Source: a virus
Taxonomy: Duplodnaviria; Caudoviricetes
DNA: 35,752 bases
Virus record (IMG/VR): IMGVR_UViG_3300044949_000822
Coordinates: 1-35,752 of that record
Strand: one strand, 5' to 3'
This document shows, one piece after another, positions 16,594 through 28,425 of the stretch. Positions within the stretch are counted from its first letter, which is position 1. Every line of letters starts with the position of its first letter. The notes under the pieces are model-generated. The model saw nothing but the letters and a program-made list of their open reading frames with translations. It did not search any database and had not been told where the DNA came from. The translations under genes and the position numbers were made by a program.

Positions 16594-17178
16594 ATGAGCC
16601 CGTCAATCGCAGAAGCAAACGAAACGCTACGAAACGCAGTCGAGGCACGCCGCGAGGCGCAAGCCGAAGGAAGGCCACTTGAGGAGTGGTACGGTGTGTC
16701 GCAGGCGGCGACAGACGCTGCGTCATCTGTCGCAGAAGCAGAGGAACCGCAACACGTCGATGAGCCATACATCGAGCACCTGCTGCACGAGCACCACCTG
16801 CACCGTGCTGGCCTGACGCAGGACGAACTAGACGAAGCCCTTGAGCGTCTGGCCGGCGACGGCATCACGCACGAGCAGCGGCCCGGCTCGCTGCCGTTTC
16901 TGGAACTGCTCGAGGAGGTGCGGCATCTGCACCTGAGCAAGAGCCAGGACTACGGGAGCGAGAGCGACCCGCTGGCCAACATCCGCCAGGGCGCTGAGTT
17001 CGTTGGCATCGAGCCGTGGCGTGCCTGTCTCGTCAGAGTGGCCGACAAGGTGCAGCGGCTGAAGACGTACTGCAAGACGGGCCGGCTCGTCCACGAGGGA
17101 GTGCGCGACACGCTACTGGATCTCTCGGCGTATAGCCTTCTGGCGATTGTGCTTTTCGATGAGGGCCGCAATGGCTGA
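16594..17178 (+). CDS. DUF1599 / nucleotide-modification-associated-domain-like protein
   Basis: C-terminal KSQDYG...RVADKVQRL...DTLLDLSAYSLL pattern. Confidence 0.7.
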   Translation: MSPSIAEANETLRNAVEARREAQAEGRPLEEWYGVSQAATDAASSVAEAEEPQHVDEPYIEHLLHEHHLHRAGLTQDELDEALERLAGDGITHEQRPGSLPFLELLEEVRHLHLSKSQDYGSESDPLANIRQGAEFVGIEPWRACLVRVADKVQRLKTYCKTGRLVHEGVRDTLLDLSAYSLLAIVLFDEGRNG

Positions 17179-17359
17179 GCCGCTAACGCCCGAACACCTT
17201 GCCACGATGGAGCAGGCCGCCCGCCGCTTCTCGGGTGCGTACACGGGCACGAGCGGGACGCTGGCCGGCTACGTGATTCACTTGTTGCAAGAAGTGCAAC
17301 GGCTGAAAGCCGAGTGGCAACTGCTCGCGGTGGCAAAGGCCATGAAAGAAAACGCCTAG
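17171..17359 (+). CDS. Hypothetical protein
   Basis: GAGG RBS; overlaps the upstream stop. Confidence 0.6.
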   Translation: MAEPLTPEHLATMEQAARRFSGAYTGTSGTLAGYVIHLLQEVQRLKAEWQLLAVAKAMKENA

Positions 17360-17422
17360 GCCGGGGCTTGAGCGGCGGCAGGTTTTACTCCCTTTCCCTG
17401 CCGTCGCTCGCCCTGTGCCTGG
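17356..17422. terminator. Long hairpin between convergent genes, probable bidirectional terminator
   Basis: GAGCGGCGGCAGG (17370-17382) pairs with CCTGCCGTCGCTC (17397-17409), with an outer extension. Confidence 0.6.
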
Positions 17423-17423
17423 T

Positions 17424-18365
17424 TCATCTCGGCTTGCCCGGCCCAGCCCCCGGCCTGTCTTCGGGCCGCTGCGTGATGTCTGGCAGGTAGTCGAGGTTGC
17501 TTTCCCTGCCCGTTATCTCCTCGTCGTAATAGTGGGTTTCGGCCATTTCTTCGCTGCTATGCCCCAGCTGTTTCTTGGCTGAGATTCCGGCCCGTTTCAG
17601 ATAACTCGCTGTGCTTTTCCGAATTGAATGAAACGGGTGGTATGGCACCCCAGCTGTGCGACACAGCACACGCAGGCTGCCGTAGATGGACAGGAACTCA
17701 CGATCCTCCACCCAAGGCCACACACGCTCGCTAGGGGCCCCTCGCTGCATGGCCAGCATCTTGGCCAGTTCCGGCGTGATCGCCCGCGTAATCGTCTCTC
17801 TGTGCCCTTTGCGGGTGGCAGCCAGAAACGTGAGCGTGTGCTGCTCCAGATCCACCTCTGACCACCGGAGCTCGAGCACAGCACCGATGCGCTCGCCCGT
17901 CTGAAACATGGCGAGAATCTTGGTGACCCAGTACCAGGCCGCTGGCTTGCCCGCTACGGTGCCTTTCCTGTGCCTGGCGGTATCGACAAGCCTGGCAAGC
18001 TCCTCGGCCCTGAAGGCCTTCGGGACGGGCTTAGGGACGCGAGGCCGGGCGTAGTCTGGGAACTCGACCAGTTCGCCGTCAGACCGTTTCCAGCGTTTCT
18101 TGGCCAGCCACGTCCACAAGCTACGCAGGTGGGCGGAATCTTTGGCCAGCGAGGCTGGCGAAATCTTTTTGTAGCGGCTGTGCTGGGTGGCCTGCCGCCA
18201 CCGCAGGAACTTTGCGGCCGTTAAATCATCGAGATCGTCCACCGTGGGCTCATGCCCCAGGTAGTCGCGGAACCTGTCTAGGCTGCTCAGGTACATCACC
18301 ACCGAGCGGTCAGAGAGCCCTTTGAGCGGGGCTACTCGGTCAATCAGCAAATCCCTCAAAGTCAT
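17424..18365 (-). CDS. int: Tyrosine recombinase / phage integrase
   Basis: TGERIGAV (R), RKG (K), HSIR (HxxR), LGH and HYY (Y) catalytic set; SAM-like N-terminal domain; GGGAGG RBS. Confidence 0.92.
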   Translation of the reverse strand: MTLRDLLIDRVAPLKGLSDRSVVMYLSSLDRFRDYLGHEPTVDDLDDLTAAKFLRWRQATQHSRYKKISPASLAKDSAHLRSLWTWLAKKRWKRSDGELVEFPDYARPRVPKPVPKAFRAEELARLVDTARHRKGTVAGKPAAWYWVTKILAMFQTGERIGAVLELRWSEVDLEQHTLTFLAATRKGHRETITRAITPELAKMLAMQRGAPSERVWPWVEDREFLSIYGSLRVLCRTAGVPYHPFHSIRKSTASYLKRAGISAKKQLGHSSEEMAETHYYDEEITGRESNLDYLPDITQRPEDRPGAGPGKPR

Positions 18366-18397
18366 CGCACGCCTCCCATTTTCTTGTCAAAAAGGCG

Positions 18398-18426
18398 ATG
18401 CTACCGGATACTGTACAGATGTTCAA
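18398..18426 (-). promoter_or_regulatory. Sigma70-like integrase promoter TTGAAC-N17-TAGCAT, overlapped by palindrome TGTAC-N4-GTTCA (18412-18425)
   Basis: Read directly on the minus strand, about 30 nt upstream of the int start. Confidence 0.55.
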
Positions 18427-18538
18427 TCTACACCCCATCCGTTAGAAACATCGCCGCGAATCTACTGTACAGCGTTTCCAGTACAGCAGGCAAGGCGAGT
18501 TGATCCGTATGATTGATCGAACTGCGTGAACTGGAAAC

Positions 18539-18838
18539 ATGGCGAAGAAAAAACGGACACCCGCTGGACAGCCCGCTAAACTCCTGGCCATGGACATGAC
18601 CACGGAGACGCAGCGAGAACTCATCGGAACCACCGATGCCGCGAAGATTCTTGGGGTACGGGTTGGCTACATCCGCCAACTTGCGCGCGACGGCGACATC
18701 TGGTCAGACCACAGGTTTGGCCAGAGATGTCCTGTGTATGACGCCATCGAGCTCAGGGAACTGGCTGAGCAAAAGCAGGCAGAGCGCGATTCAGGCACCC
18801 GTGGCGGCAGGCCGCCAAGCGGCGGACCAGTTGGCTAA
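18539..18838 (+). CDS. Excisionase-like (MerR-type HTH) protein
   Basis: LIGTTDAAKILGVRVGYIRQLARDG; divergent from int. Confidence 0.75.
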   Translation: MAKKKRTPAGQPAKLLAMDMTTETQRELIGTTDAAKILGVRVGYIRQLARDGDIWSDHRFGQRCPVYDAIELRELAEQKQAERDSGTRGGRPPSGGPVG

Positions 18839-19467: not shown

Positions 19468-19600
19468 ACGCAGAAAGGACCGGCGGCAAGCGGAGCTAGT
19501 TGCCGGAAGGAGAGCGGTGGAACCGCAGCAGCAAGGACGCACTTACCACCCGCCGAGCAGGACGCGGAGCGGGCTTTTTCAACAACGCAGAAAGGGACGC
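19468..19600 (+). ncRNA. Candidate CsrB/RsmY-like GGA-rich structured RNA
   Basis: Nine GGA motifs in about 120 nt, several in hairpin loops, with a terminator-like stem plus T-run. Confidence 0.45.
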
Positions 19601-19601
19601 G

Positions 19602-20291
19602 ATGACCACGACGATTGCAAACACGAACGACCGCAAGAGCATCTTGCTGAGCATGGCCACGAAGTTTGGCATGGAGCCAGCGGCCTTTGAGGCCACGGTG
19701 CGTGCCACCTGTGGCTGCGACAAGGCCACAAAGGAGCAGTTCGCTGCCTTCCTGCTGGTGGCCAACGAGTACGGGCTGAACCCGGTGACGAAGGAAATCT
19801 ACGCCTTCCCGACACGCGGCGGCGGCATCCAGCCCATCGTTGGCATTGACGGGTGGATGACGATGGCGAACAACCACGCTGCCTACGACGGAATCACGTT
19901 CGTGGACAGGCTGGGGGATGACGGGCAGCTGGTGGCGATCACGGCCCAGGTGCACCGGAAGGACCGCAGCCATCCGGTGGAAGTCACCGAGTACCTAGCC
20001 GAGTGCCGCCAGGGCACGGAGCCATGGAAGAAGTGGCCTGCCCGAATGCTTCGCCACAAGGCAGCCATTCAGGCCATCCGCTACGCCTTCGGGTTCAGCG
20101 GCATCGTTGACCCAGACGAGGCCGATCGGATGCGTCAGCCGCAGGTGAGCGTGACGGTGAACCACCACCCCGAGCCGCTGCAGCACCGGAGGTTTTCCGG
20201 CAAGCAGGACGTGCCAGCGTTGACCGTTGAGCCCGAGGACCGTGGCCAGGAGTTCCCGCACGAGGCTGCCGAGCACGAGGTGCACGCATGA
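19602..20291 (+). CDS. bet: Red-beta/RecT-family single-strand annealing protein
   Basis: YGLNPVTKEIYAFP, IVGIDGW, PWKKWPARMLRHKAAIQAIRYAFGF. Confidence 0.93.
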   Translation: MTTTIANTNDRKSILLSMATKFGMEPAAFEATVRATCGCDKATKEQFAAFLLVANEYGLNPVTKEIYAFPTRGGGIQPIVGIDGWMTMANNHAAYDGITFVDRLGDDGQLVAITAQVHRKDRSHPVEVTEYLAECRQGTEPWKKWPARMLRHKAAIQAIRYAFGFSGIVDPDEADRMRQPQVSVTVNHHPEPLQHRRFSGKQDVPALTVEPEDRGQEFPHEAAEHEVHA

Positions 20292-20653: not shown

Positions 20654-20977
20654 GTGATGAGCGACTACTACAAGGAAGCACCGCTGCCGCTGTTCGCAAC
20701 GCGAGCGCCAAGCGTCAACGGCTCGGCCACCTCGGCCGCAGCTGCGGACTCGCTGGGGCCGGCAACGCTAAACGCGATGCAGCGGCGCGTCTACGAGTTC
20801 ATCAAGTGGCGCGGTGCAGCCGGGGCAACCGACGAGGAAATCCAGATTGAGATCCAGATGCCAGCGAGCACGCAGCGGCCACGTCGCGTTGAGCTCGCAC
20901 GTAAGGGGCTGATCGTGGAGGGCGGCACCAGGCGGACGGCGAGCGGGCGCATGGCAACGATTTGGAGGAAGGCGTGA
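20654..20977 (+). CDS. Winged-helix DNA-binding protein
   Basis: QRRVYEFI...GATDEEIQ...STQRPRRVELARKGLI; AAAGGA RBS. Confidence 0.75.
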   Translation: MMSDYYKEAPLPLFATRAPSVNGSATSAAAADSLGPATLNAMQRRVYEFIKWRGAAGATDEEIQIEIQMPASTQRPRRVELARKGLIVEGGTRRTASGRMATIWRKA

Positions 20978-22404
20978 TGGCTGTATTACCAATACCAGAC
21001 GACGCCATTCTTGATCGCCTTACGTCTCTCCCGGAAGGCGACCGAGCCACCTCAAGAGCAAACCCATTTGCGGTTCTAGTTTCATCAAACGAACTGCTGA
21101 CCGCAGATCACGCAGTTGTATCTGGCCTCTACAGCACCGGCGAATCGTTTTCGTGCCCGAAATGTCGCGGAGAAATGCGGCTCTACGTCAACGCAAGAGG
21201 GACTCCTTTTTTCGCGCACGCTTCCGCCCGCGGATCGTGCCCGTCTGGATTTGAAACGCCAGCTCATCTGTGCATAAAGCGAGGGCTCCACTCAATCGGA
21301 TTCTCTTGCGAGCACCGCGACAGCAGTACGTCATTTCAGTTTGACGCATACCACGAAGAAACAGACACGGCCGTTGAGGTGATTAGTAGCGGAACAGGCC
21401 GTTACGAAAAAAAGATACACGACATGAGAGCGAGCGGGCGGCGGTGCTGGTGGATAGCAGACAGCGGCTCAAGAAGCCTTGGATCAAAGGACGGGAGCGA
21501 GCGCATTTGCATGCGATCCTTTGAGTCAATCGGCCACGTTATTGTAAGCGGACTATTTAAGCCGAAAGCAGGGCCCCTGTTTTCGCAAATTGGAAACGAG
21601 TCCTTGTACGCGTTTTATTACGGACTGATCTGGAAGTCGTGCGGAGATGACCGCTGGCAGTTGCAAGATGAAGACCACCCTCTGTCAAAGGCGGCGACGG
21701 CAGATGATGGCATGAAACATTTGATGGTGAGGATGCATTGGGAGAACGCAAATGTTGTGACGGAACTGAAGAGAAAAGGCATCAATCGAAGGACGTGGTT
21801 CGACTCAAAGTGGAGATACCGTGGTTTGTGGACTCCTACCTGGAAGGGCGACCGCGAATACATCGTCGATCTCGTCAATCAACTGATAGACGACGCCAAG
21901 AAGGCCGAGATGTTCGTGTCTCGCAATCGCAATTCATCAGGCTCAGCATCAGTGACTCAGCCAGTTCACCGAAGTGCCGAGGATGTTCTAAGGCGTATAA
22001 CGGACGGTCACTCAGCGTCTTTTGGAGATGCTAGGAAACTTAGGGACATTGCAAACAACTCAGCCGTTACAAAGGCATTGTCTGCTGCAGAAATATTGGA
22101 CGCGAAGCCATTACCTGCTGTTATAGATCAATCTTCTTTAAGAATCAGTAAGCGAAAGAGGTTGATCGTTTCTCAAAAGTGGGACGAAATCGAACGCTGG
22201 GATTCTCCACGGAGGGGCTCGACCCTCAATGCTAACCGGCAACTTCAGCAGATTTCCGCAAGTAAAGACCCTGTTGTTTGCGTCTGCGGCTGCGACCAAT
22301 TGAGAGTCAAAAGCATGGGCAAGCTTCGGTGGCTGTGTTGCGAGAACTGCGGAAGCAGTGTCGGCAACTCGTGGGTGGAGCGGCGGCATTCGGTTAGGTC
22401 TTAG
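20977..22404 (+). CDS. CoiA-like zinc-finger plus putative PD-(D/E)XK nuclease protein
   Basis: CPKC...FFAH...C..ETPAH then FDAY....AVEV; C-terminal CVCGC/CENC; lower GC. Confidence 0.6.
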   Translation: MAVLPIPDDAILDRLTSLPEGDRATSRANPFAVLVSSNELLTADHAVVSGLYSTGESFSCPKCRGEMRLYVNARGTPFFAHASARGSCPSGFETPAHLCIKRGLHSIGFSCEHRDSSTSFQFDAYHEETDTAVEVISSGTGRYEKKIHDMRASGRRCWWIADSGSRSLGSKDGSERICMRSFESIGHVIVSGLFKPKAGPLFSQIGNESLYAFYYGLIWKSCGDDRWQLQDEDHPLSKAATADDGMKHLMVRMHWENANVVTELKRKGINRRTWFDSKWRYRGLWTPTWKGDREYIVDLVNQLIDDAKKAEMFVSRNRNSSGSASVTQPVHRSAEDVLRRITDGHSASFGDARKLRDIANNSAVTKALSAAEILDAKPLPAVIDQSSLRISKRKRLIVSQKWDEIERWDSPRRGSTLNANRQLQQISASKDPVVCVCGCDQLRVKSMGKLRWLCCENCGSSVGNSWVERRHSVRS

Positions 22405-25341: not shown

Positions 25342-25743
25342 GTGAGGAATCGGACTTACGACTACGCGGAAGTGCGTCGCCTGTATGACTCTGCCGTAAC
25401 GGTTGACGAAATCGCTGACCGCATCGGCGCTGCTCGCTCCACTGTCTGGCGGATTCTCAATGGGCATAAGCCAGCCAGTGGGGCGCAGGCCAAGAAGGTT
25501 GATCGTGAGGTGCTGCTGAGGTTGTGGCAGCAAAATCTGACGCTTGAGGAGATTGGCCTAACCATCGGGTGCTCTGGCTCAACCGCTGGAATGCTGGCCA
25601 GGCAGCACGGGATGCCGCCGCGAGAGTCTGCCAGGAAGATGCAGCTGCCAGACCCGACGCCAGACGAGATTGCCGTAAGAGCACGCGAGTGCAGAGAGCG
25701 GCACTACGCTGAGAGACGGCGAGAACAGGGAGGGCTGGCGTGA
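25342..25743 (+). CDS. Tandem HTH protein
   Basis: Two HTH-like units, TVDEIADRIGAARSTVWRIL and TLEEIGLTIGCSGST. Confidence 0.72.
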   Translation: MRNRTYDYAEVRRLYDSAVTVDEIADRIGAARSTVWRILNGHKPASGAQAKKVDREVLLRLWQQNLTLEEIGLTIGCSGSTAGMLARQHGMPPRESARKMQLPDPTPDEIAVRARECRERHYAERRREQGGLA

Positions 25744-25746
25744 GCG

Positions 25747-25835
25747 AGAGAACACGGAAGATCAGCGGCTCCCGGCCACTGACGTAGAATCACCAAAAGG
25801 CGGCACCGGGAGTCCGCTGCATCCGTTGGTTCTCA
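25747..25835 (-). repeat. attC-like site 1 (89 bp)
   Basis: Minus strand: TGAGAAC-CAACG-GATGCAGC...GCTGATC-TTCCGT-GTTCTCT. Confidence 0.85.
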
Positions 25836-25847
25836 CAGGAGAAAAAG

Positions 25848-25970
25848 ATGAGCTCTTGGAATGCGCAGTATTTGCTCGGAGTCGTGATTGGTTCGGTTCT
25901 GGTTTCGGTCGTTTCGTGTGCCGTTAGGCTGCTGATTCACAGGGGCCGACCTAAATCATGTCGTATGTGA
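25848..25970 (+). CDS. 40-aa membrane peptide in cassette 1 (below the ORF-track cut-off)
   Basis: AGGAG RBS; MSSWNAQYLLGVVIGSVLVSVVSCAVRLLIHRGRPKSCRM. Confidence 0.55.
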   Translation: MSSWNAQYLLGVVIGSVLVSVVSCAVRLLIHRGRPKSCRM

Positions 25971-26206
25971 TACGAAAAATGCCCAACGAAATGCCTTGGT
26001 ATGCGTGGTTTTCCCTTGCCGTGCTCATCCCGGCGTCGTTCTTTGGGTCGGCTTGGTTGATGCACTGGGCAACAGGAGCTGACCCGCTGGTTGAGGAGAT
26101 ATGGCGGCTGCGTGGGCAGAACTCGGTGCTGCGGGAGCGGCTTGAGCAACTGGAGGGCGAGCGGCGGCGCGATTCCGAGACGCTTCGCAAGGTGATCGGG
26201 AAGTGA
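25958..26206 (+). CDS. Membrane-anchored coiled-coil protein in cassette 1
   Basis: Transmembrane segment then heptad-rich tail; stop lies in the core box of attC2. Confidence 0.65.
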   Translation: MSYVIRKMPNEMPWYAWFSLAVLIPASFFGSAWLMHWATGADPLVEEIWRLRGQNSVLRERLEQLEGERRRDSETLRKVIGK

Positions 26207-26292
26207 GAACGCTAAGGATCAGCGGCAGCGATGAAAGGACTCACCATGCGTAAGGACGATGCAACGCTGTCCGCTGCATCCGTTGGTTAGGC
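26204..26292 (-). repeat. attC-like site 2 (89 bp)
   Basis: Minus strand: GCCTAAC-CAACG-GATGCAGC...GCTGATC-CTTAGC-GTTCTCA. Confidence 0.85.
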
Positions 26293-26747
26293 ATCTCATG
26301 GCTGACTTTGACAACAACCGATTCCAAAGCAAAAGCGTTGAGTGGGCAACGCCGCAACAACTATTTGCCGTGCTAAATGACGAGTTTGGCTTTACGCTTG
26401 ACGTTGCCGCGAGCCGCGAAAATGCAAAATGCGGCCGATACTTCACGGCAGAGAATGATGCGCTGCGGCAGGATTGGGACGGAACGTGCTGGATGAATCC
26501 TCCATACGGAAGGGAGGTTCCGAGGTGGTTGGAGAAAGCCATCGCGGAATCAAAGCGTGGCGTCACGACTGTGTGCCTGATACCAGCGAGGACAAACACG
26601 GGTTGGTTTCACGAGTTGTGTTTTCGCCAGGGCGAAGTTCGTTTTGTGCGAGGTCGCCCAAAGTTTGGGGACGCCGACCACGGGCTGCCATTTCCGCTGG
26701 CGGTTGTGATCTATCGGCCGAGATACCAGACGGTTCAGATCGCCTAA
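26259..26747 (+). CDS. dam: Phage DNA N6-adenine methyltransferase, cassette 2 (start 26259 within attC2, or 26298)
   Basis: EWATP, FTLDVAA, DALRQDW, WMNPPY, LIPARTNT.WF, RGRPKFG. Confidence 0.9.
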   Translation: MQRCPLHPLVRHLMADFDNNRFQSKSVEWATPQQLFAVLNDEFGFTLDVAASRENAKCGRYFTAENDALRQDWDGTCWMNPPYGREVPRWLEKAIAESKRGVTTVCLIPARTNTGWFHELCFRQGEVRFVRGRPKFGDADHGLPFPLAVVIYRPRYQTVQIA

Positions 26748-26830
26748 CACGGAAGATCAACGGCGGCCGCCGCAGGACTCACCATGACACATGACGAAGC
26801 AGGGCCGTCCGTTGCATCGGCTGGTTATGC
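26742..26830 (-). repeat. attC-like site 3 (89 bp)
   Basis: Minus strand: GCATAAC-CAGCC-GATGCAAC...GTTGATC-TTCCGT-GTTAGGC, with a compensatory G-C to A-T change in the L arms. Confidence 0.87.
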
Positions 26831-27359
26831 CGCGTACCGCTGCATCTTGATTGACCCTCCGTGGCCACAAGGGATGACAGGAAGCCGGAAGCGAGCGAAA
26901 GGCGGATCGCCTCCCGAGTTGCCATATCCGACTATGACGCTAGAGCAGATGATTCGACTTCCGGTGAAAGCACTGGGGGCTGACGACTCCCACTTGTGGC
27001 TCTGGACAACGAACCAGTTTCTTGAGGATGGGTTTATCCTCATGCGGGCGTGGGGCTTCAAGTACCTTGCGGCCGTTCACGCGATCAAGCCAAGCGGAAT
27101 CGGAAACTACTTCATCAGCAGGACGCAAACGCTGCTGTTTGGCTACAAGCACAAGTGCCGGTTCCCGCTGGAGCGATACAAGCCAAACGTGATCGAAGTA
27201 CCAGACCCGCCTCGACACAGTGCGAAGTGGGACGAGACATACGACTACATCGAGGCGATCTCGCCTGGGCCAAGGCTGGAACTGTTTGCCCGGCGGAAGC
27301 GGCCGGGGTGGGACGTTTGGGGCAACGAGGTTTCTTCGGATATTGACCTAGTGGCATAA
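26784..27359 (+). CDS. MT-A70-family adenine methyltransferase, cassette 3
   Basis: ILIDPPW, YPTMT, HLWLWTTN, AWGFKY, HSAK, RLELFAR..RPGWDVWGNE. Confidence 0.92.
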   Translation: MTHDEAGPSVASAGYAAYRCILIDPPWPQGMTGSRKRAKGGSPPELPYPTMTLEQMIRLPVKALGADDSHLWLWTTNQFLEDGFILMRAWGFKYLAAVHAIKPSGIGNYFISRTQTLLFGYKHKCRFPLERYKPNVIEVPDPPRHSAKWDETYDYIEAISPGPRLELFARRKRPGWDVWGNEVSSDIDLVA

Positions 27360-27443
27360 CGCCAGAGATCAGCGGCCCGCGACCGCTGACGAAACTACAA
27401 CCAGACGGCGGCATCGCGGGCCCGCTGCATCGCGTGGTTAGCT
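27354..27443 (-). repeat. attC-like site 4 (90 bp)
   Basis: Minus strand: AGCTAAC-CACGC-GATGCAGC...GCTGATC-TCTGGC-GTTATGC. Confidence 0.87.
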
Positions 27444-27448
27444 GTCGC

Positions 27449-27853
27449 ATGAGAGACGAAGAAGAATCGAAGGAAAACTTTGCTGCAGAAGCCGAGTACG
27501 TAGCCGAACTGGAGAAACGAGCCAAAGAGGCAGTCCTCCAGGCGAAGGTGCTGATCGGCATGCGAGACGAGGCGTGCAAGAACATGGTGGAGCGGCGGAT
27601 TTACGACATCGCAGGAGACTTCCCGTCTCGCTCAAAACCGGTTGAGTGCGTGTTTCATTTTGCGGAGGGCGACGAAGAAGTTCGGATTGAAGATGTTCGG
27701 CTTCCGTGGCGGTACGGCGGTGGAGAGGCGTTGCACTTTAGGTCGCCAGTGGTGGTTTATCGCTCTAAGCTAAAGAGCGGGAAGTGGTCAAAGACGGTGG
27801 CCGAAGTGGACGCGATGTGGGCAATCACGCAGATTGAAAAGTACACCAGCTAA
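27449..27853 (+). CDS. Hypothetical protein, cassette 4 (start 27434 or 27449)
   Basis: Fills the cassette; TAA stop is part of the CAGCTAAC core. Confidence 0.7.
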   Translation: MRDEEESKENFAAEAEYVAELEKRAKEAVLQAKVLIGMRDEACKNMVERRIYDIAGDFPSRSKPVECVFHFAEGDEEVRIEDVRLPWRYGGGEALHFRSPVVVYRSKLKSGKWSKTVAEVDAMWAITQIEKYTS

Positions 27854-27984
27854 CCAGTAAGTATGCGGACCCGTATATCCGCCACCGCTGGCCATATATC
27901 TCCAAGCCGTCAGCGCCGTGCAGCCGCTAGCCGCAAGCTTGTCGCGCTAACGCGGATTATCTGCCGCATATCTCGCAGTCGTGT
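27848..27984 (-). repeat. Degenerate attC or attI-like primary site at the head of the array
   Basis: Minus strand: ACACGAC-TGCGA-GATATGCG...CGCATAC-TTACTG-GTTAGCT; spacing kept but AAC is replaced by GAC. Confidence 0.5.
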
Positions 27985-28070
27985 CACGCCCCGCGACACG
28001 ATGGCTGAACGTATGTCAAAAGCGACGAAAAGCGACCGCTTTTGCATACAAGTGGGGCGGCCCTGATTCC

Positions 28071-28128: not shown

Positions 28129-28425
28129 ATGCGTTTCGTTTTGCTTCTCGCCGCCCTGGCGTTCGCTTCCGTTGCCAGCGCCGATACCACCGTGGTGGCT
28201 CGTCGTGGCTCTGTCATCAGTGCCCAGGATCACGCCGTCGTGATCGCTCGCCGTGGCTCGCTTGTGCATTCCAGCTGCGGCCAGTACGAGGGCATTGGCA
28301 CCGGCTCAACGCCTGAGCAGGCCCGGCGCAACTGCTGCTTCTTCGGGAAGCGCGTCATCGTTGAGGAAGGCGTGGCCTACTCGCCCGTGGCTCGTCGCTG
28401 GTTCGCGGTCATCCGCTATCGGTGA
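28129..28425 (+). CDS. Small secreted Cys-containing protein
   Basis: AGGAGG RBS; signal peptide MRFVLLLAALAFASVASA; repeated V(V/I)ARRGS; NCCF motif. Confidence 0.75.
   Translation: MRFVLLLAALAFASVASADTTVVARRGSVISAQDHAVVIARRGSLVHSSCGQYEGIGTGSTPEQARRNCCFFGKRVIVEEGVAYSPVARRWFAVIRYR

Follow-up and report, generated by a model that had tools for sequence, protein, structure and literature searches.

An integron-like platform of reversed gene cassettes, lacking an integrase gene, in a lineage of tailed phages

Introduction

Bacterial integrons are gene-capture devices, and anti-phage genes are among the functions that they store (bioRxiv 10.1101/2024.07.02.601686, cited from its available part). 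Cassette arrays also occur in tailed phages: the available text of one report describes 17 clusters of attC sites lacking integron integrases (CALINs) in 10,705 genomes, with five methyltransferase cassettes, and five of the six phage attCs tested there were recombined with attI1 by IntI1; one inactive cluster in a Shewanella prophage begins with an attI, and the authors name off-target or illegitimate recombination as a possible cause of these scattered occurrences (Qi et al. 2023, PMC9892861). Arrays carried by phages thus have precedents, and a remark in the initial annotation of the DNA studied here, that cassette arrays were not known as a working module of tailed phages, was mistaken, since attC clusters, some with methyltransferase cassettes and IntI1-reactive sites, had been published in 2023 (PMC9892861). 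Here we describe the array of IMG/VR virus record IMGVR_UViG_3300044949_000822 (Duplodnaviria; Caudoviricetes), of which the whole stretch of 35,752 nucleotides (nt) was analysed and is referred to as the window. We consider it about 80% probable that this array is an integrase-less integron platform, made of an attI homologue and four cassettes with reversed genes, which the IntI of a probably Pirellulales host, acting in trans, loads and shuffles.

Like the phage CALINs described in the available text of PMC9892861, this array is an attC cluster without intI in a tailed phage and carries methyltransferase cargo. It differs from them in having an attI locus conserved across a lineage, 290 families of cassettes, exact points of cassette gain, loss and reordering, systematically reversed genes and start codons in attC loops; the term 'Planctomycet' was absent from the supplement of that article in a four-term search. 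We found no report of a lineage-wide phage attI platform, of reversed cassettes with loop start codons or of arrays in planctomycete phages, in a literature coverage outside which lie most subscription journals and bioRxiv supplements.

Results and discussion

The attC sites and cassettes of the window

Four copies of the motif AAC-N6-GATCA(G/A)CGG...CCG(C/T)TGCATC-N5-GTT stand on the + strand, their AAC lying at 25751, 26208, 26746 and 27358, and none on the - strand, and a test of attC geometry that makes no use of sequence likewise returned four sites on + and none on -, with none in 100 dinucleotide shuffles searched on both strands. The four imperfect palindromes picked out in the initial annotation (Table 1) thus hold, and they have the full anatomy of attC sites, with R' and R'' cores carrying AAC and GTT, paired L boxes and unpaired spacers of 5-6 nt. 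On the + strand each of them opens with AAC and 6 nt, continues with the short L arm and then with the L arm that bears the extra base, and closes with 5 nt and GTT; the extra-helical bases are C and T in attC1-3, and C and C in attC4. According to the available text of Nivina et al. (2016, PMC5027507), the attC bottom strand is cut where AAC passes from A to C (written AA/C below), and by this anatomy the + strand of the window is the bottom strand. The cassette genes are therefore reversed relative to those of canonical cassettes, and each cassette reads attC, gene, RYYYAA on +.

At their two ends the four units are perfectly reverse-complementary (8, 7, 8 and 8 nt), which had been proposed from the letters alone, and these complementary ends of 7-8 nt would close each unit into a circle with one attC. 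The units share with canonical cassettes the bottom-strand A/C crossover, two extra-helical bases 6 bp apart and spacers of 5-6 nt (PMC5027507, available text). They depart from them in that the gene does not lie on the attC top strand upstream of its own attC: each attC stands ahead of its own gene, which lies downstream on the bottom strand. Recombination of the top strand, as described in the available text of PMC5027507, flips a whole cassette with its attC, whereas in the phage the attC is oriented towards attI in the normal way and the gene alone is reversed. With at least two attC sites close together and no intI nearby, the platform is integron-like and fits the definition of a CALIN, not that of a complete integron.

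Table 1. Features of the cassette platform and of the recombination genes in the window
Feature	Position	Strand	Remarks
HTH (helix-turn-helix) gene	25342..25743	+	left flank of the cassette platform
attC1	25747..25835	- (top strand on -, recombinogenic bottom strand on +)	crossover AA/C between 25752 and 25753; extra-helical C and T 6 bp apart
Cassette 1	25753..26209	+	oldest position, farthest from attI; no family
attC2	26204..26292	-	loop with AAAGGA and ATG 26246, opening a 14-codon leader
Cassette 2	26210..26747	+	Dam-type N6-adenine DNA methyltransferase, 26298-26747 (NPPY motif); PF05869, E 3.5e-31; phrog_111
attC3	26742..26830	-	loop with AGGA and ATG 26784 of the MT-A70 gene; frame reads through the right arm
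Cassette 3	26748..27359	+	MT-A70-family methyltransferase, 26784-27359 (DPPW motif); PF05063, E 1.7e-21; phrog_359
attC4	27354..27443	-	near-identical attC type found in a bacterial array (L207)
Cassette 4	27360..27853	+	134-aa open reading frame 27449-27853, no known family; adjoins attI
attI homologue	27848..27897	-	crossover AA/C between 27853 and 27854; homologous to attI beside freshwater Pirellulales IntI genes
Small conserved protein, hydrophobic N-terminus	28129..28425	+	right flank, RusA next
Bet/RecT single-strand annealing protein	19500..20291	+	TIGR01913 above cut-off; PF03837
Phage tyrosine integrase, not IntI	17424..18365	-	beside excisionase-like gene; family searches and BLASTP

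The positions of the four cassettes stood as first proposed, except that the fourth unit closes at the attI homologue and not at a fifth attC. The statement that each palindrome separates one gene unit fails for unit 1, which holds two short open reading frames (ORFs; 25848-25970, 40 aa, and 25958-26206, 82 aa) without a family match and looks composite, and is therefore not one gene; Atlas matches of a cassette 1 protein reach 0.85 or less and give a lead only. In cassette 2 the attC2 leader ends within the core (TAG 26288-26290), 7 nt ahead of the Dam start, and the Dam stop codon overlaps the next crossover; the Dam protein scores 92.7 bits with TIGR01712, below the cut-off of 97.05. The two methyltransferases probably guard phage DNA against host restriction. 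Cassette 4 is predicted to be the newest; its protein has no relative in the viral contigs and no usable Atlas match.

The attI homologue

A profile built from 26 phage end-of-array sites was searched against 33 host intI loci and matched nine of them at E<=1. At eight of the 33 loci the matching site is found downstream of intI, at a distance of 238-375 nt, and has the strand that an attI at the head of a co-directional array should have (five of these eight at E<0.01); reversed host DNA gave no match to the profile. Phage and host sites share the columns AAC-AGT-T-T-CGG-CC-TA, and other phage end types look, by eye, like other host attI candidates; the stretch 60-135 nt past the core has no significant host match (one match, E 0.77). 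By position and homology, the window thus carries a putative attI at the head of its array, which the initial annotation had overlooked, together with the reversed polarity and the start codons in attC loops. A candidate fifth attC at 27852-27984 was rejected, as it does not fold into a single hairpin and host attI can be aligned to the 50 nt with which it begins.

The direction of the phage attI runs against the phage early genes. Because the cassette genes point towards attI, any Pc promoter would be antisense; a sigma-70 scan found no site, the sigma-70 model being weak evidence for this host. In freshwater Pirellulales, intI is mostly co-directional with the array, which is the inverted-integrase layout (PMC4889954 and PMC8352920, available texts). 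The sedentary chromosomal integrons of these bacteria have attCs of the same family as the phage platform (sites with C and T as extra-helical bases, AAC to GTT spanning 80-82 nt) and a homologous attI, but they have intI and mostly canonical genes, whereas the phage has no intI, genes antisense to the attI direction and translation starts in attC loops. In one bacterial genome (G035) an attI-like motif is present in four identical copies, each on a different contig, and one copy adjoins intI.

Reversed genes and start codons in attC loops

When polarity was called by a stop-and-coverage rule, 187 of 286 phage cassette families were reversed, five canonical, 46 both and 48 neither; the 24 bacterial units gave two, 12, one and nine, respectively. 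The five 'canonical' phage units had the appearance of calling artefacts on inspection. A ribosome-site motif with an ATG is found in the loop of 162 of 212 long phage attCs as against two of 84 bacterial ones; one common frame runs through the attC arm in 145 of 151 loop starts, and 139 of the 151 frames stay open for at least 40 codons. Short ORFs in recombination sites (ORF-11, ORF-17 and ORF-18 in attI1; attC ORFs) are known to help the translation of cassette genes, but those described in the available text of PMC8876359 lie on the top strand and act by re-initiation for the next cassette, whereas the phage starts lie on the bottom strand and usually lead in frame into the cassette's own protein. 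One consequence for annotation is that cassette proteins have attC-encoded N-terminal leaders such as PSPASAG. A recombination hairpin is able to hold a ribosome site and N-terminal codons and yet keep its fold, and the reversed design shows that the recombination mechanism does not fix the polarity of the gene in a cassette.

The cargo was scanned in the 150 longest of 236 cassette ORFs, and 49 of these 150 matched PHROGs: 24 were of the phrog_924 type (DUF551 in five of five tested), nine were methyltransferases, two PAPS-reductase-like, two HNH, one Mom-like and 11 others. The array could be thought a passively captured, inert piece of a host chromosomal integron, since its attC and attI sites are of host type, its cassettes have a G+C content of 0.55-0.58 against 0.64 in the flanking genes, and captures of this kind are published for Vibrio and Shewanella prophages (PMC9892861, available text). 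Yet bacterial cassettes are mostly canonical and have no loop start codon, the cargo fits phage families (the nine methyltransferases and 24 phrog_924-type proteins above), and content varies at AA/C between near-identical phages (see below), so that passive capture is largely refuted and we hold it to be highly improbable.

In the methyltransferase homologues of other phages (87 loci, L489-L575), 11 attC-like sites have their bottom strand on the gene strand and one has the opposite orientation; the reversed design therefore extends past this lineage.

Cassette movement among relatives

Relatives of the locus were collected through the two flanking proteins (at least 157 viral loci) and through a motif scan (at least 130 more). 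In 158 gene-oriented loci, a count that takes in the window and 28 duplicate contigs, 159 attC-like sites lie on the gene strand and none on the opposite strand, as against 0, 1 and 0 in shuffles; arrays at other loci of related phages agree in strand with their flanking genes in 122 of 124 cases. The platform was surveyed in 70 non-duplicate loci that span from the clamp gene to the right flank. All 17 close relatives have an attI-like end, 14 with attC and three empty, with 0-4 differing cassettes; among the 53 distant relatives, 22 have attC, seven the attI-like motif only and 24 neither.

The alignment of relatives called for in the initial annotation bears out its expectation of cassette gain, loss and reordering with breakpoints at AA/C, so that the cassettes move as units with breakpoints at the core. 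Two phages (L003 and L012) have 589 of 600 left and 495 of 500 right bases in common (98-99%) and differ solely by a 582-nt insert of two cassettes at AA/C; cassettes follow each other as F13, F14, F15 in L068 and as F15, F13, F14 in L392; and in 15 cases 20 identical upstream bases stand ahead of an attC in one place and of attI in another. From the viral contigs 323 distinct units were parsed, which fall into 290 cassette families, and all 27 families with more than one member were found in more than one context. The arrays comprise 1 to 15 units (15 in L359, the longest parsed), and 93 of 121 distinct arrays finish at an attI-like motif, the motif list being derived from the same data and including some loose matches.

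The ends of a unit match its own core by at least four further bases in 80% of 316 units, compared with a mean of 14% (maximum 20%) in 1000 shuffles. The first extra-helical base is C in 260 of 272 distinct sites, where canonical attCs usually have G (PMC5027507, available text); the second stands 6 bp past the first in 230 of the 272 and is T in 220. Stem pairs are compensatory, for example at pair 8 (GC 172, AT 92), in sites pre-selected for pairing. In some relatives the sites, cores included, measure about 48-58 bp and so fall at the lower end of the attC range of 57-141 bp quoted in the available text of PMC5027507, or short of it. These phages commonly have minimal, almost loopless attCs in which AAC to GTT takes up 40-43 nt (L012:7143-7184, L006:3249-3289).

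Contigs of eight lake sequencing runs were compared with the window, of which run X1 is possibly the source. Runs X10, X14 and X18 have a contig joint from 25750 to 27358 at AAC with a 3-letter overlap, so that an attC4-type site, and with it cassette 4, lies directly behind the HTH gene there; in X8 and X10 the end of cassette 4 is joined to an attC3-type start, and in X18 cassette 4 is followed by another attC where attI would be. Many loose contig ends fall at 26746, 26826, 27358, 27439 and 27852. Taken together, the cassette platform is real and evidently active.

Integrases and the candidate host

The absence of IntI from the window, noted in the initial annotation, is borne out: its sole tyrosine recombinase has no TIGR02249 match (a host IntI control scores 451 bits) and no significant BLASTP match to this control, and no intI gene of a complete integron was found in the window. 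No protein above the TIGR02249 cut-off was found in 48 and 50 phage records (98 in total), 20 of which are at least 90% complete. The attC motif occurs in at least 129 bacterial stretches, many of them from freshwater Pirellulales and others from Cyanobium and further phyla; four of five bacterial genomes with the motif have an IntI above the cut-off, as do 28 of 61 relatives of the Pirellulales genome G002, which are candidate hosts. A phage contig whose capsid is 88% identical to that of the window is binned in another genome (G030). We infer from sequence comparison that a host IntI is used; because the phage encodes no IntI, the host integrase is the likely mover.

Two side observations concern exchange with bacteria and IntI itself. 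On a bacterial contig labelled Cyanobium sp. FGCU52 (L207:893-1209), a reversed cassette of the phage type, which matches one in L430 at 93% identity and has an attC4-like site, adjoins a canonical cassette and precedes a different attC type; the genome has two IntI. If the label is right, this is a possible transfer from a phage to a bacterial integron across phyla. In an unrelated phage (L571:2434-3163), an attC and a Dam gene 72% identical to that of the window are followed, in the same direction, by an IntI-like fragment of 79 N-terminal amino acids (TIGR02249 positions 1-69, E 8e-7).

Several observations weigh against movement by a host IntI, and some of them speak for another recombinase. 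A tyrosine recombinase of the phages' own (PF00589) is present in 20 of 20 near-complete phage records tested and might itself work on the attC and attI sites; in line with this, no integrated form that would indicate a role in lysogeny was recognised, the survey of 87 integrase loci, from which loci without a phage homologue in the short flanks were left out, showing no integration junction and no tRNA there. An attB search of 176 genomes with the queries 17150-17440 and 18350-18560 returned no attachment-site match, its three best matches lying in the coding part of the query. The recombinase is nevertheless also present in five of five relatives that lack both an array at the locus and any true attC arm, its gene is 7.4 kb distant and has an excisionase-like gene as its neighbour, it shows no significant similarity to IntI, and the attC and attI sites of the window are homologous to those that stand beside host IntI; we regard its action on these sites as quite unlikely.

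The same gene body is found with a different attC in 17 of 41 pairs, which simple movement by IntI does not explain and which points to Bet-type recombination or to repeated formation of cassettes, and cassette 1 has a breakpoint near 25942, off any AAC core, with loose ends in five runs. Both findings favour a scheme in which attC and attI are genuine and were seeded once by IntI, current shuffling being mostly homologous recombination by Bet/RecT, for which the phage encodes a Bet protein (Table 1), between attC repeats and shared bodies of co-infecting phages. However, 93 of the 121 arrays finish at an attI-like site, which has only AAC in common with attC, and together with the 290 families this demands many site-specific insertions; the cassette-specific complementarity of cores (80% against 14%) and the extra-helical bases are preserved, so that we think this scheme unlikely as the main mover. 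The attC-type switches on one cassette body (L117, L413, L090, L122, L371, L020, L338, L032 and others) lie at or near the right arm, and may bear on cassette formation.

Further reservations concern the evidence for the platform and its host. The match to attI covers a short stretch, is of moderate strength (best E 3.6e-5) and holds for only eight of 33 intI loci, and the polarity control from bacteria is a small one of 24 units. Six of 176 genomes of the candidate host family have related phage contigs in their bins, binning being no proof of a host. Contig joints that go back in the array can arise from shared attC types. Since contigs break at repeats, cassette orders are unphased and no circle is proven; the search for circle junctions put forward earlier yielded contig joints at AAC and, in contigs only, no excised circle.

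Proposed mechanism

Weighing these points, we still favour a platform served by the IntI of the host, for which the following scheme may be proposed. An ancestor would have acquired its attI, turned round, from a host integron. When the phage infects or is induced, DNA would become single-stranded and attC bottom strands would fold; host IntI would then cut cassettes out (attC x attC) and place them at attI. IntI requires an insertion of its own to read extra-helical bases, and SOS may couple induction with intI expression in this host. The phage early transcript would read the array from the oldest cassette towards attI, and only cassettes with reversed genes would be readable by it; selection would therefore build a phage-adapted pool, in which the hairpin loop turns into a translation start. 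Methyltransferase cassettes would counter restriction, and to these events homologous recombination by Bet probably adds swaps of attC.

By odds only slightly better than even, in our estimation, planctomycete phages have domesticated a host integron, with an attI of their own in reverse, a borrowed host IntI, a separate pool of hundreds of phage-made cassettes and an attC hairpin that doubles as translation start, the cassettes deriving from phage early genes and being able to leak into bacterial integrons. If this is true, phages are a place where new cassettes get created. For the question how cassettes are first formed, this pool, which is large and young, offers test material, one and the same gene body occurring in it with several attCs. 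Phages appear to apply integron chemistry to accessory genes of their own, methyltransferases included.

Other features of the phage genome

With the terminase small subunit (37) at one end and an HNH gene (35400) at the other, the window makes up a nearly complete siphophage genome that has HK97-type head genes, the tyrosine integrase and excisionase-like genes, Bet, a sliding clamp and RusA. No tRNA was found in the window, and an Rfam search of it gave no match. All 24 runs listed with the array region are lake water metagenomes, with no RNA run among them. Among 15 of the 52 entries listed from a cultured-phage collection, matches were at the methyltransferase level only, plus a clamp below 60%.

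To the right of attI, a 94-nt stretch within 27975-28070 is swapped for 5 letters in runs X6, X9 and X18, and L006 and L014 are likewise shorter there. A 480-aa ORF (20962-22404) in a low-G+C stretch (about 0.50-0.53) has no Pfam, PHROG or NCBIfam match and may be an accessory gene taken up by the phage. Two copies of TACTGTACAG lie within 18400-18490, in the interval that separates the integrase gene from the excisionase-like one; they have no host match and are possibly operator or attachment arm sites.

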